From assembly GCF_053078305.1 (NCBI RefSeq), contig NZ_CP166879.1: a stretch of 64,000 bases of DNA; one strand, 5' to 3'. Below are positions 33,611-38,798 of the stretch, in pieces (position 1 is the first letter of the stretch; every line of letters begins with the position of its first letter). The notes under the pieces are model-generated. The model saw only the letters and a program-made list of their open reading frames with translations, ran no database searches and was not told where the DNA came from. Both the position numbers and the translations under genes were made by a program.

Positions 33611-33822
33611 AGAGCTTCCTTTTGGTGTCGCCTTCCCAGGCGTCTGATATGCTTTTGTGCAACAGTGAGTCAGAACTTACATCTGACTCACTGATAGTAA
33701 AGTCTGTTTGAACTCTTCAGGCCTTAAGTAAACGACTCGACGTTTTAACTGGCCTGGCTTTGAGGCGCAACATACTACACTATCTTTATGGTTAAAGCTT
33801 GTTTCGATTATCATCAGCTTAA

Positions 33823-34473
33823 TTACCAGCCACCACCGCCTCCGCCACCCGCGCCGCCGCCAGCACCACCACCGGAATAACTTCGCCCCAACAAACTGGT
33901 ATTGGCCCCCAGACTCAGGTGCATCTGTAATGAGAACAAAACGCCACTACGGGCAATTTCCGGGGCGCTAACAGCCGCTGTGAGTGATGGGGTGATACGT
34001 GCTACCCATTCTCTTCCAAGGTTTGCTGAGACTGCCCAACCTGGCAACGCGTAATCCAGTTTCCGTGTTTCCCCTTTCCGCCGCCGCCCACTGTGTGTTG
34101 CCGCCTCTTTACGCGCAAGATAGTTAACGATAGCTTCACCGTGGGCATAACGTTGCTGCCCAGTTTGGGTAAACTTTGGCAGAAAAATATACCCCATACC
34201 AGTGAGATAACCGGTCAGGAAAACAGCGCTAAAATAACCCGCTGGCATATACCAGTAAAAGAATACATCTCCGACATTGATATAGAGAGAATAAAAGGCC
34301 ACGCCTGAACAAATCAGCGGTAAAAACAAAGTGATGATTACACGATTAACGCAAGGCTTGTCATCATCGCGGGCAAACAAAAGCTCAAGGGAGCAAAATA
34401 AAAAAGGAAGAAGCCAGCAGATCATAATAAACATATCGCCCATGTAACCAGGTAAATCATTTGATACCGACAA
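33823..34473 (-). pseudogene. yciQ: 3' remnant of membrane protein gene yciQ, truncated by prophage insertion
   Basis: 216-aa ORF with TM helices and glycine-rich C-tail in the position of yciQ (upstream of rluB in K-12) but far shorter than a full-length gene; its 5' side runs into prophage-end sequence; ORF start is a TTG, not a real start. Confidence 0.5.
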
Positions 34474-34620
34474 GGGTTTTAGTGAAAGGAGGTGAAATCA
34501 CCTGTAAGATACTGAAATAAAACAGGTGATCGATGATTCTGGAGGTTGTTTAGTTTTGATACTGATTAAATAAAATCCGGTATAAAATTAAGGTATCGGC
34601 AACAAATTTGATACTGCACA
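34458..34620. repeat. Putative prophage left-end (attL) transposase-binding sites
   Basis: TTGATAC(C/T)G-like motifs at ~34461, ~34557 and ~34608 plus related copies (agatactga ~34507; inverted gccgatacc ~34592); about 96 and 51 bp apart, similar to my recollection of Mu L1/L2/L3 spacing. Confidence 0.4.
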
Positions 34621-34747
34621 TACTGCTTATGGACGTTTTTAAAAGTACTTAAAATGTCTTTTATGCTAAAAAGTTTATATCAATATCGATCTGGTCACAA
34701 ATCAAGTTGAAAGTGCTCGCTAAGTGCATAGCCTGGGCTTCATGGGG

Positions 34748-35266
34748 TTACGCTTTGGCTTCTTTATGGGTTAAATTGAAATGATGCTCCTTGGTTTCAT
34801 CTCCCTCGAAAATCTCTCTAACCTTTTGATCTGATAAATTATTAAGGCTCAATGCTGCCAGGCGTCGAATACCTGTTAAAGCGATCAACTCTTGATTCTC
34901 TTGATTGCAGAATTCCAGCAATTTTTCTACCCCTTTCCTTCTCAAGGTGTAAATAACTAATTCTTGCTCTTCTTGGCTCAAAGTGTCGATGAGTTCGAGC
35001 AACTCGCTATTGCCACCGTTCTTTTGAGGGGGCTGGTGTTTTATTTCTGCACTACCTGTAATGATGGAAACAACATGTGCAGGTAAGTCGCTTAAACGGT
35101 AGGCAAATGCTCTCCCTCTGATACCAGGTGTAGTTACCGAACGTTTTTCCCATCCTTCATTTTTTGCTCGTTTATGAAGCCCAGCCAGAGATGAAGGAAG
35201 ACCTCCAACCCCCAACAAGTCACTGGCAAGGATCCATTCTTGGTCAAGGATCATATCAAACTCCAT
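34748..35266 (-). CDS. Mu c-type prophage repressor
   Basis: 172 aa, transcribed leftward ~280 bp from the left end; N-terminal motif LPSSLAGLHKRAK shared with the transposase N-terminus (LPSSLAGLHKKAK). Confidence 0.7.
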   Translation of the reverse strand: MEFDMILDQEWILASDLLGVGGLPSSLAGLHKRAKNEGWEKRSVTTPGIRGRAFAYRLSDLPAHVVSIITGSAEIKHQPPQKNGGNSELLELIDTLSQEEQELVIYTLRRKGVEKLLEFCNQENQELIALTGIRRLAALSLNNLSDQKVREIFEGDETKEHHFNLTHKEAKA

Positions 35267-35483
35267 TTGATATTAACTTTTGTTTATATCTTTTATGCGG
35301 TTTATTTCAAAAATAACTCAATAAAAAACAAATAGATACAGAGCAAATTTAAAAATTTGAAATTAACCAGTTGATATTTACTAAGTTAATATCTAACATA
35401 TCAAACATACACTAGTGAGTAACTCAATAGAGTAGCACACATGAGTAATAAAGTTTGCCATAGAAAGTACACAGGGGGCCATT
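35267..35483. promoter_or_regulatory. Early regulatory region (divergent repressor/early promoters and operators)
   Basis: 217-bp AT-rich intergenic region between divergent repressor and ner, with ttgatat-type direct and inverted repeats. Confidence 0.5.
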
Positions 35484-35729
35484 GTGAGTCTTATTGAAGA
35501 TTGGTCTTCCGCCGATATAAAGGCAGCCTTAGAAAAACGCGATACCAATTTGTCACGTTTATCAAGGGAAAATAATTTGCAGCCTAGGACTTTGGGTAAT
35601 GCTTTGCGAGTTCCCTACCCTAAAGGTGAAAAGATAATTGCTAGGGCTATAGGTGTAGAGCCACAGGTTATTTGGCCTACTAGATATGAACGACGTGCGC
35701 GGAGGAAATATGTGGGTTGCAATGACTGA
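35484..35729 (+). CDS. ner: Ner/Nlp-family DNA-binding protein
   Basis: 81 aa; resembles Mu Ner / E. coli Nlp (...LSRLSRENNLQPRTLGNALRVPYPKGEKIIARAIGVEPQVIWPTRY). Confidence 0.75.
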   Translation: MSLIEDWSSADIKAALEKRDTNLSRLSRENNLQPRTLGNALRVPYPKGEKIIARAIGVEPQVIWPTRYERRARRKYVGCND

Positions 35730-37794
35730 ATTGATTTCATTCAGTGACCTACCTAGTTCTTTGGCAGGTCTGCACAAAAAAGCAAAGAGGGAAGCGTGGA
35801 AAACGCGGCTAAAACCAGGGGTAAAAGGGAAAGTTTTAGAGTGTGAAATAGGAGCTTTGCCTTTAACTGTTCAGCAGGCAGTACGCGAACGCCATGCCCT
35901 GCAACTGATGACGCAAAAAGCCGATGAATCACCGGCTCCGGTGGTGACAAAGGCCAGACGCTCACCTGCCGTGGTTGATGCGGTGGAGGCATATCGCGGA
36001 TCACCCCAACTGATGGTCGAACGCCTCAATGCCCTGACTGAAAATCAGCGCCAGGTGGCTGATGCACGAATCGCGATCGTCAGCGAAGTTCTGAAAGTCG
36101 CGCAACAACCTGGTTTCAGCTGTGCGAAGGCTATCCGGTTTATCGTTGACAACCTGGCACGTTCGCAGTTGGACGAGCGCATTGTGGCAATGGTTGAGAC
36201 GGCGAACGCCAAAAAGGGAAACAGCCGCGCGTTAAGTGAAATCACGCTGAAACGCTGGATTGCGGCCTTTAACAAGGCGCAGAACGCCGCTGAACGCCTG
36301 CTTTTACTGGCACCGGGTAAGCGCCAGGAAATAAAAGCCGAAGATATTAACTGGCTGCCCGAATTTCTGGCGCAGTATCGCCAGTCAAACGGCCGACCAA
36401 TGACCGAGGCTTACGAGGATTTTGTCGCTGAATGGCAGCACCGGCACGCCGATGAGCCTTATATGCTCGATATCATGCCGTCTTATGACACCATTCGCCG
36501 CGCAATGAAGAAACTGCCGGAAGTGGTGAAACAAAAAGGCCGGGTGACCGGCAGTGAATACCGCCAGCTTGAGGGATTCACGCGCCGCGACTGGTCAAAA
36601 ATGCCGGTGAATTATGTCTGGATTGGTGACGGTCACGGCATGAAGCTGAAATGCGCACACCCGGTTCACGGTCGGCCATTTGCACCGGAAGTGACCTTTG
36701 TTATCGACGGTGGCACGCGCTTTGTGGTGGGCTGGAGCCTTGACCTGGCTGAAAATGTTTTCGCCGTAGCCGGTGCCATACAGCACGGCATTCGCCATCA
36801 CGGCAAACCGTTTCTGTATTACTCGGATAACGGCTCCGGGGAAACCGCCGACATCCTGGATAAGGAGGTTGTGGGGATACTGCCGCGACTGGGGATTAAT
36901 CACCCGACCGGGATTGCCGGTAATCCGCAGGGACGAGGCATTATCGAACGGCTTAACCGCACATTACCGATGCGCATAGCCCGTAAATACCGCACCTATT
37001 TCGGGAAAGGTGCAGATCGCGAGACGTTACGCAAAACCAACCGCGATTTACGCTCGGCATTTACTGCCCTGCAACAGGGCAAACGGCTGAACGCCCGGCA
37101 GCAGTCAGCGATGCGTGATTTACCGTCCTGGTCTGAACTGATTGATGCCATTCGTGACGGTGTTGAGTGGTACAACAACCGGCCGCACGATGAATTACCG
37201 GTGAAGCCGAACGGCAAGCATTACAGCCCGGCGGAGTTCAGAAAAAAACGCCTGGCGGAAGAGGACACGGAAATTGAATGGCTGTCCGATGTTGAGCTGC
37301 GGGATATGTTCCGGCCGATGGTGGAACGCCCTGTAAGACGCTGTGAAATACGCTGGCTGAATAATATTTACTACGCGCCCGAGCTGCGTGACGAGCATGG
37401 TCGTAAGGTGCTTATCAGCTATGACATTCATGATGCCGAACGAATTACCGTACGTCGCCTGGATGGCAGCGTGATTTGCGAGGCGGTATGGGACGGTAAT
37501 AAACGCGAAGCCTTCCCGGTTAGCGCGGAATACTACAAACAGCAGCAACGCCTTAAAGGCATGCGTAAACGCGCAGAGGAAAAAATCCGTGATGCCGAGG
37601 ATGAGGTTGTCAACGTGCTGGAGCACAAGCCGCAGGAGCCCTGGCTGGAAAACATATACCGCCCTGTGGGTAATACGGTGACCGTTCAGCAACCGGTCGC
37701 TGACGATGAACCTGATGAAGAATACGAGCGTAATTTCCAGCGGGGATTGCAGTTGCTGGAAGCGAAATTAAAAGAAAATGACCCGCTGGCCTGA
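35710..37794 (+). CDS. Mu-type DDE transposase (MuA-like)
   Basis: ORF 35686..37794; N-terminal repressor-like DNA-binding domain; DDE core (WIGDGHG, YYSDNGSGE); start codon ambiguous. Confidence 0.9.
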   Translation: MWVAMTELISFSDLPSSLAGLHKKAKREAWKTRLKPGVKGKVLECEIGALPLTVQQAVRERHALQLMTQKADESPAPVVTKARRSPAVVDAVEAYRGSPQLMVERLNALTENQRQVADARIAIVSEVLKVAQQPGFSCAKAIRFIVDNLARSQLDERIVAMVETANAKKGNSRALSEITLKRWIAAFNKAQNAAERLLLLAPGKRQEIKAEDINWLPEFLAQYRQSNGRPMTEAYEDFVAEWQHRHADEPYMLDIMPSYDTIRRAMKKLPEVVKQKGRVTGSEYRQLEGFTRRDWSKMPVNYVWIGDGHGMKLKCAHPVHGRPFAPEVTFVIDGGTRFVVGWSLDLAENVFAVAGAIQHGIRHHGKPFLYYSDNGSGETADILDKEVVGILPRLGINHPTGIAGNPQGRGIIERLNRTLPMRIARKYRTYFGKGADRETLRKTNRDLRSAFTALQQGKRLNARQQSAMRDLPSWSELIDAIRDGVEWYNNRPHDELPVKPNGKHYSPAEFRKKRLAEEDTEIEWLSDVELRDMFRPMVERPVRRCEIRWLNNIYYAPELRDEHGRKVLISYDIHDAERITVRRLDGSVICEAVWDGNKREAFPVSAEYYKQQQRLKGMRKRAEEKIRDAEDEVVNVLEHKPQEPWLENIYRPVGNTVTVQQPVADDEPDEEYERNFQRGLQLLEAKLKENDPLA

Positions 37795-37865: not shown

Positions 37866-38798
37866 ATGACTGATATTAACGATGTAATCAAGACCATTGA
37901 TGAACTTATTGATGGCGGCGTACTGACGCAGTATGCCATCGCCAGAGAGGCGGGAATTTCCGACGGCACATTATCGGCTTTCCGTAAGGGAAAATATAAA
38001 GGCGATAACGCTGCTGTGGCTGCTTCCCTGCGTTCCTGGTATGAGAACTGGAATAAACAAAGCGCACTGCCGGAACCGCCGCAGTTTGTGGAAACGCAGA
38101 CAGTCCAGGAGCTGCGCACACTGTTTCAGGCGGTTCGTCTGATGGGCTGTATTAACGTTATTGTGGGCGTACCGGGTGTGGGTAAAACGGCCACTGCCCG
38201 TAATTACTGCCAGGAGCAACCAAACACCTGGATGATCACCCTGTCACCCGCGCACTCCAGCGTCACGGAGTGTCTGCTGGAGCTGGCCGATGCGCTGGGG
38301 ATTGATTACACCCGCGCGAACAAAGGGGCATTATCCCGCGCCATCCGCCGTCGCCTGATGGGAACGCGTGGACTGGTGATTGTGGATGAGGCGGATCATC
38401 TTGGTATTGACGGTCTGGAGCAACTCCGGGCAATTCAGGACGCCACGGGGATCGGGATGGTGCTTATTGGTAACCCGCGCGGATTGTTTAAAGGTGGACG
38501 CCGCGCCTTTGATGATTTATCGCGCCTGTTCAGCCGTCTTGCCCGTACAAAACAACTTCGCAAGGCCAAAAAGGCGGATGTGCTGGCCATTGCCAGTGCG
38601 TGGGGGATCAGTGGTGAGGCCGAGCTGGCCGTCATGCAGGCTATCGCTGAAAAGCCGGGAGCGTTACGCGTTCTGACACATACGCTTAACCAGGCGTGGC
38701 TCACCGCCAGCGGTGAAGGCGCGGCGCTGACAGAAAAACATATTAATGCGGCCTTTAAAGAGGTTTATACCAACCCTGAATTACTCTCACAGGTGTGA
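37866..38798 (+). CDS. Mu B-like AAA+ ATPase (target DNA activator)
   Basis: 310 aa; N-terminal HTH, Walker A GVPGVGKT, Walker B VIVDEADHL. Confidence 0.85.
   Translation: MTDINDVIKTIDELIDGGVLTQYAIAREAGISDGTLSAFRKGKYKGDNAAVAASLRSWYENWNKQSALPEPPQFVETQTVQELRTLFQAVRLMGCINVIVGVPGVGKTATARNYCQEQPNTWMITLSPAHSSVTECLLELADALGIDYTRANKGALSRAIRRRLMGTRGLVIVDEADHLGIDGLEQLRAIQDATGIGMVLIGNPRGLFKGGRRAFDDLSRLFSRLARTKQLRKAKKADVLAIASAWGISGEAELAVMQAIAEKPGALRVLTHTLNQAWLTASGEGAALTEKHINAAFKEVYTNPELLSQV

Follow-up and report, generated by a model that had tools for sequence, protein, structure and literature searches.

Mu-like control regions and the locus under study

In bacteriophage Mu, the transpositional enhancer overlaps the operators O1-O2 (O1/O2-IAS) and is read by the I-alpha domain of the transposase MuA, and the c repressor inhibits transposition both directly and through transcription. 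Mizuuchi and Mizuuchi, Leung et al. and Surette et al. are all said to have described in 1989 that the Mu repressor and MuA I-alpha bind overlapping sites. The locus considered here is a putative counterpart of this control region, located in a 64,000-nucleotide stretch of contig NZ_CP166879.1 (assembly GCF_053078305.1; hereafter the window, whose numbering is used throughout), and it comprises a leftward c-like repressor gene, a rightward MuA-like transposase gene (A) that starts with the same type of DNA-binding domain, and a group of candidate sites between them.

The Mu transposition enhancer is an AT-rich segment adjoining c that is bound by MuA, which holds the L end, the R end and the enhancer together (PMC5977238), and the overlap of operator and enhancer sites is backed by secondary statements in PMC3820752 and PMC5977238. 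Mu and D108 form a heteroimmune pair, in which the co-variation of the c and A domains was first seen, according to the passage of PMC3820752 that cites Mizuuchi, Weisberg and Mizuuchi 1986. Sp18, carried by E. coli O157:H7 Sakai, and the Sp18 group are described as a Mu-like prophage of O157 (PMC7430833, PMC2669165, PMC4406740).

The window locus resembles Mu in the gene order (c leftward and ner, A and B rightward), in the winged helix-turn-helix domain with which both proteins begin, in the degree of c/A similarity (41% in Mu, 42% in the window), and in the candidate sites, which lie some 0.8-0.95 kb in from the left end, in the AT-rich interval between c and ner. It differs from Mu in that its proteins are only about 30-38% identical to their Mu counterparts in the PF02316 domain (the repressor matches Mu c at 17 of 53 residues, and the transposase N-terminus aligns with MuA residues 3-61), in the helix motif (SLAGLHKxAK in the window, SVAGVHYRAN and TSAGVIYVAK in Mu), and in a transposase that, beyond this domain, resembles MuA only very remotely (21% over about 390 residues). 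With respect to the second pair of systems, Mu and D108 are near-identical phages differing in a left-end cassette made up of c, the operators, ner and ~55-60 codons from the start of A; likewise, the window and Sp18 share the left tip, the DNA from transposase codon 55 on and the end sites, but their 1.34-kb immunity cassettes are entirely unlike. Immediately past the domain's conserved Leu-Pro, the transposases of Mu, D108 and PhiR68_1 become near-identical, and so do those of the window and Sp18. The two pairs differ in one respect: both the Mu and the D108 cassettes keep the domain shared by c and A, whereas in the Sp18 group the window cassette does and the Sp18 cassette does not.

A shared N-terminal DNA-binding domain

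The two genes and their domains are located as follows.

34748-35254, minus strand: repressor gene (c-like), 168 residues (PF02316; RefSeq coordinates of relatives)
35072-35236, minus strand: repressor winged helix-turn-helix domain, residues 7-61 (BLASTP, PDB sequence match, AlphaFold, Foldseek)
35162-35200, minus strand: repressor core LPSSLAGLHKRAK
35710-37794, plus strand: transposase (MuA-like), 694 residues (N-terminal PF02316, PF09299, MuA alignment)
35710-35871, plus strand: transposase I-alpha-like winged helix-turn-helix domain, residues 1-54 (BLASTP, PDB sequence match, AlphaFold, Foldseek)
35749-35787, plus strand: transposase core LPSSLAGLHKKAK

BLASTP with composition adjustment yields a single significant alignment between repressor and transposase, confined to the N-termini (23/55 residues identical, 33/55 positive, E=4e-12) and centred on the core LPSSLAGLHK(R/K)AK, in which LPSSLAGLHKRAK and LPSSLAGLHKKAK agree at 12 of 13 positions. 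The original prediction had pointed to a near-identical N-terminal segment in the two proteins, quoting two peptides that are both present, and the alignment extends the similarity beyond that short motif to a whole domain of 53-55 residues, reaching transposase codon 54 (35871). Its interval, 34748-35780, took in both N-termini; the right end, however, cuts through the motif, and the domain runs about 90 bp further. The parallel drawn with Mu holds as well, since Mu c and MuA align in the same pattern (26/64 identical, E=6e-15).

Both proteins exceed the gathering cut-off of 23.3 bits for the Pfam family PF02316 (HTH_Tnp_Mu_1, Mu DNA-binding domain), with 29.0 bits in the repressor and 34.8 bits at the transposase N-terminus. 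When all PDB chains were searched by sequence, the top two matches of each protein were 1G4D/1QPM (Mu repressor DNA-binding domain) and 1TNS/1TNT (MuA I-alpha), with E from 2.5e-5 to 1.3e-4. In the AlphaFold2 models, the predicted local distance difference test (pLDDT) score is 83-88 for the repressor N-terminal domain and 82 on average for transposase residues 1-78, and the order of elements is alike in both (strand, short helix, long helix, two wing strands, helix). Rather than unrelated folds, which the prediction had named as the outcome that would speak against it, Foldseek returned 1tns and 1qpm as the top two PDB matches of both models (probability 1.0, target-normalised template modelling (TM) score 0.61-0.71), all remaining matches being far weaker. 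The two N-termini are thus predicted by these models to have the fold of the Mu repressor (MuR) and of MuA I-alpha.

The similarity also backs the assignment of both genes, as originally proposed. The repressor belongs to a family of 27 clusters in E. coli, Shigella and Salmonella, and its C-terminal part aligns with c of Mu and D108. The transposase carries PF09299 (Mu transposase C-terminal) near its C-terminus (E=1.5e-17), with sub-threshold matches to rve, is matched by retroviral integrase cores among the PDB chain sequences (E~1e-4) and aligns with MuA in two segments (BLASTP, E=4e-9); by these matches, it falls among the MuA-type DDE transposases. Open reading frames (ORFs) and Pfam matches place c leftward and ner-A-B rightward beside the left end, in the Mu order c / ner / A / B; this identifies the pair as a c repressor of Mu type and a transposase of MuA type, and confirms the assignments.

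Co-variation of the two domains across phages

The c/A pairs compared with that of the window were those of Mu, D108, PhiR68_1 and Vibrio phage martha 12B12, of prophages of E. coli RM9088 and OkiPb01678, Shigella sonnei and two Salmonella, and of two metagenomic contigs. Across six lineages, the mean c/A identity is 0.51 within a phage and 0.39 between phages, and the observed value is reached by 1 of 720 permutations of the partners; for the helix segment, the corresponding identities are 0.61 and 0.40 (2 of 720 permutations). A neighbour-joining tree joins c with A for the window lineage, Mu and PhiR68_1. Such co-variation within a phage is expected if both domains must read the same DNA.

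Each phage has its own version of the predicted recognition-helix segment, and the c and A versions of one phage match:

window: c LPSSLAGLHKRAKNEGW, A LPSSLAGLHKKAKREAW
Mu: c MPGSVAGVHYRANVQGW, A LPKTSAGVIYVAKKQGW
D108: c VPKLATNITRKAVAEDW, A LPKQATNITRKAQREGW
PhiR68_1: c LPSSASSISRKATNEGW, A LPKSSSAISRKARLEQW

Within the window family, c and A of the E. coli and Shigella relatives have the same helix despite divergent flanking residues, and the Salmonella transposases show a single difference within the SLAGLHK core. The two metagenomic relatives carry Gln in place of the SLAGL alanine, both in c (TIQGI) and in A (TVQGV or TAQGL).

The immunity cassette and its counterpart in Sp18

By its sequence, this E. 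coli window carries the left end of a Mu-like transposable prophage that is a predicted heteroimmune variant of Sp18 of E. coli O157 Sakai. The two elements needed for this comparison are given below.

34531-35871, no strand: immunity cassette, 1.34 kb, a block without blastn similarity to Sp18
L002 1714-2244 and L015 521-1051: Sp18 repressor, compared with window 34748-35254

In blastn comparisons of the window with Sp18 and with L002, homology is restricted to 34442-34530 (96.6% identical to Sp18 and to the Mu-like insert of LC727895) and to the DNA from 35872 on (98%), with no similarity to Sp18 across 34531-35871. Within this block lie the repressor gene, the candidate operator sites between the genes, ner and the first 54 transposase codons, and its right breakpoint (35871/35872) falls between transposase codons 54 and 55, just past the terminal Leu-Pro-x-x-Val of the domain. 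The flanks are present in 233 of 5,426 complete E. coli genomes, most of the window cassette in only 12 of these 233; a diverged version of the cassette (73.6% identical) is found in strain RM9088.

The C-terminal domain of the Sp18 repressor is homologous to that of the window repressor (31/81 identical, E=1e-15). In its N-terminus, no match to PF02316 was found, only a sub-threshold one to HTH_3, and no similarity to the transposase of Sp18 itself. Compared in this way, the repressor appears as a two-module protein with a swapped DNA-binding half, and the unrelated N-terminus in Sp18 implies that domain sharing is a property of the window cassette and not obligatory in the phage group. A tentative and rather doubtful generalisation would be that, in the Sp18 group, the repressor and transposase domains travel as one cassette, either with a shared domain type (window) or with an unrelated repressor helix-turn-helix (Sp18).

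Candidate operator and enhancer sites and a candidate early promoter

The interval of 229 bp between repressor and ner contains the following elements, to which one outlying motif copy is added.

35267-35395, no strand: candidate operator and enhancer cluster, five TTGAWATWWAC copies (site conservation, motif count)
35267-35277, plus strand: first TTGAWATWWAC copy
35300-35310, minus strand: second copy
35357-35367, plus strand: third copy
35371-35381, plus strand: fourth copy
35385-35395, minus strand: fifth copy, one mismatch
35371-35399, plus strand: candidate early promoter Pe, TTGATA-17-TAACAT (consensus match only)
34673-34683, minus strand: extra exact motif copy TTGATATAAAC, downstream of the repressor gene, between it and the third end site

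The motif TTGAWATWWAC has five exact matches in the 64 kb against 0.13 expected, all within 34673-35381 and hence inside the cassette, statistics that are post hoc because the motif was taken by eye from the same region. The independent support for the sites is, therefore, their conservation in relatives. In an eight-sequence alignment of the interval, all five sites keep their position and orientation in the E. coli, Shigella and Salmonella relatives, and most of them form conserved blocks while the spacers diverge. The metagenomic relatives largely keep the sites, with mg27 matching 2 of the 5 positions within one mismatch. Neither the Sp18 cassette nor the Mu control region contains the motif. 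The copy at 34673, which no relative but the closest keeps, could owe its presence to chance or serve as a partner in looping.

The Pe candidate is the sole plus-strand sigma-70-like site in a scan of 34440-35800. Its -35 hexamer lies within the fourth site (35371), and the fifth site (35385) covers the spacer and reaches into the -10 hexamer, so that a repressor bound at these two sites would block early transcription. For the leftward repressor transcript, no promoter exceeded the threshold in the scan of the intergenic region; the sequence TTGAAA-16-TATAAA on the minus strand near 35284-35310 was read by eye and is not counted as the repressor promoter.

Proposed mechanism and alternative explanations

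The favoured interpretation, to which a probability of about 0.8 is assigned, is a Mu-like arrangement in which both domains read the TTGAWATWWAC cluster as operator and enhancer, with binding, enhancer activity and competition carried over from Mu by analogy. The 11-bp sites in the repressor-ner interval would be recognised by the repressor domain and the transposase domain alike. A repressor bound to them would block the early promoter that drives ner, A and B and, at the same time, cover the sites on which the transposase N-terminal domain depends as an enhancer of transposition. By analogy with Mu, the repressor can thus probably shut off early transcription and transposition from one set of sites. 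The cross-talk between operator and enhancer that the original prediction had anticipated is suggested by the near-identical predicted recognition helix, by the pairing of c and A within each phage and by the cassette that unites repressor, sites and transposase domain.

Several points weigh against this arrangement, in addition to the choice of the motif by eye. The structural models were built on shallow multiple sequence alignments (17-18 sequences, a small but diverse set), and the C-terminal half of the repressor is modelled at low confidence, with nothing concluded from that half. The wings of the two domains differ, with a lineage-wide insertion of two residues and Arg-rich wing strands in the repressor and a Lys-rich wing in the transposase, and because of this difference their affinities or exact site preferences could differ. 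Moreover, Sp18, 98% identical to the window prophage elsewhere, pairs a PF02316 transposase domain (25.7 bits) with a repressor of unrelated N-terminal fold.

The Sp18 pairing and the divergent wings are also what would be seen if the two domains shared ancestry but not targets, the transposase domain having drifted or become vestigial and operator and enhancer having no cross-talk, and many Pseudomonas transposable phages, which have the domain in the transposase only, fit this explanation too. It is nonetheless unlikely, since the predicted recognition helix is 12/13 identical although the synonymous sites of its codons are randomised, and since the helix is kept identical in c and A of the E. 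coli and Shigella relatives, with the one SLAGLHK difference in the Salmonella transposases. Furthermore, the cassette exchanged with respect to Sp18 takes exactly the transposase domain, which is hard to explain if this domain were untied to the sites of the cassette.

A recent DNA event, namely gene conversion or an inverted duplication between the divergent 5' ends of the two genes, could have produced two inverted segments about 550 bp apart with a nearly identical stretch of 13 residues. The codon comparison rules it out, leaving it very improbable: nucleotide identity between the repressor and transposase domains is 55% over 53 aligned codons, and the same codon is used at 11 of the 23 identical residues (Trp at two of the 11) against about 9.1 expected for independent draws from local codon usage, while in the core codons match at only 4 of the 12 identical residues. 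Identical residues thus share codons about as often as chance predicts, which argues for selection on the protein: the amino acids are held and the synonymous sites are randomised, as in a conserved protein sequence under selection with no recent DNA duplication. In addition, the repressor and transposase versions form separate conserved lineages (E. coli, Shigella, Salmonella and metagenomic), and the two-residue insertion is specific to the repressors.

Least probable of all, a chance or compositional match of unrelated basic N-termini, conceivable for a short motif rich in Lys, Ala, Leu and Ser, is ruled out by the composition-adjusted BLASTP score and by the independent assignment of both proteins to the same Pfam family, the same two PDB families and the same predicted folds.

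Prophage end, insertion site and neighbouring features

The remaining elements of the prophage, whose right end falls outside the window, are the following.

34443-34530, plus strand: prophage left end, starting with TGTAACCAGG, common to Sp18 (96.6% identical to the Sp18 and LC727895 left ends)
34460-34469, plus strand: first end site TTTGATACCG
34555-34564 and 34607-34616, plus strand: two further end sites TTTGATACTG, with the one at 34460 the candidate L1-L3 transposase sites
35413-35449, plus strand: three GAGTA repeats (35417, 35430, 35443) with 13-bp spacing (columns conserved in the eight-sequence alignment)
35484-35729, plus strand: ner-like gene, 81 residues (PF13693 HTH_35, E=6.7e-27)
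37866-38798, plus strand: MuB-like AAA+ transposition protein (PF09077 Phage-MuB_C, E=3.6e-25; AAA_22)

The left end at 34443 was placed by alignment with the annotated Mu-like insert of the Shiga toxin (Stx) phage LC727895 and with Sakai Sp18. The end motif TTTGATACYG has five exact matches in the 64 kb against 0.23 expected, three of which are at the left end (34460, 34555, 34607); these copies are kept in Sp18, even within the otherwise diverged block, and in strain F8492 a prophage of the same type has three inverted copies at its right end. The conserved downstream DNA-binding part of the transposase is expected to bind these end sites, and in the proposed Mu-like arrangement it would be this part, and not the N-terminal domain, that reads them.

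The prophage interrupts the host gene yciQ (DUF2207), truncated at 34442, and the window keeps only the 3' part of it (33700-34442, 99.7% identical to intact yciQ of other E. coli). A listed ORF of 216 residues (33823-34473, minus strand) has phage-end sequence as its first ~10 codons. In other strains, identical prophages lie in ypdA, in meaB and beside nrfA, the variety of insertion sites expected of near-random Mu-type insertion. The target-site duplication is 4 or 5 bp, ambiguous at the F8492 junctions (left L009, right L016); the annotation of LC727895 gives 4 bp (L002 1460-1463), and that of Mu is 5 bp.

As for the gene boundaries, the repressor ORF spans 34748-35266 on the minus strand, and its relatives in RefSeq use M5 (position 35254) as the start; the alternative ATG at 35266 would give a protein of 172 residues. 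The transposase ORF opens at 35686 (plus strand), 24 nucleotides upstream of the ATG at 35710, which is preceded by GGAGGA, is the RefSeq start in identical prophages (694 residues) and is likely the true one. The end of ner (stop codon at 35729) and the transposase start (35710) overlap by 20 nucleotides, which suggests translational coupling. The GAGTA repeats, just downstream of the Pe candidate and with the first of them inside the palindrome TGAGTAACTCA, are, by analogy with Mu, likely candidate Ner-binding sites.

Two further observations concern the C-terminal part of the repressor. ClpXP sensitivity of the Mu repressor is governed by its C-terminal tail; the repressors of the window family end in K-x-A-(S/K)-A (34748-34770; KEAKA in the window), and those of Mu, D108 and PhiR68_1 in KAV. 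The JGI metagenome protein P0026, 43% identical to the window repressor, is labelled 'Mg/Co/Ni transporter MgtE' in one source, probably a mis-annotation from a weak MgtE_N-like similarity of the C-terminal domain; the Sp18 repressor gives a sub-threshold similarity of this kind as well.

Significance for Mu-like phages

The N-terminal homology of c and A is already known, being the classic result on Mu and D108 and encoded in Pfam, and the current understanding of transposable phages is unchanged by the present finding. What is new is a further specificity class of the domain pair, accompanied by the sites proposed for it, and, in the Sp18 group, a natural exchange of predicted heteroimmune cassettes whose boundary respects the transposase domain. 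Shiga-toxin-producing E. coli commonly carry this Mu-like phage, which is mobile in them, and the analysis delimits its immunity cassette, its candidate operator and enhancer sites and its end sites. The Mu rule of a shared recognition domain that moves with the immunity region holds here for a transposase otherwise very distant from MuA. The contrast between the window and Sp18 is a natural comparison of how tightly repression and enhancer recognition must be coupled: if both cassettes are functional, near-isogenic natural phages would differ in whether repressor and enhancer compete on shared or on different specificities, and this, if true, would offer a direct test of the need for domain sharing in the control of transposition by the repressor.

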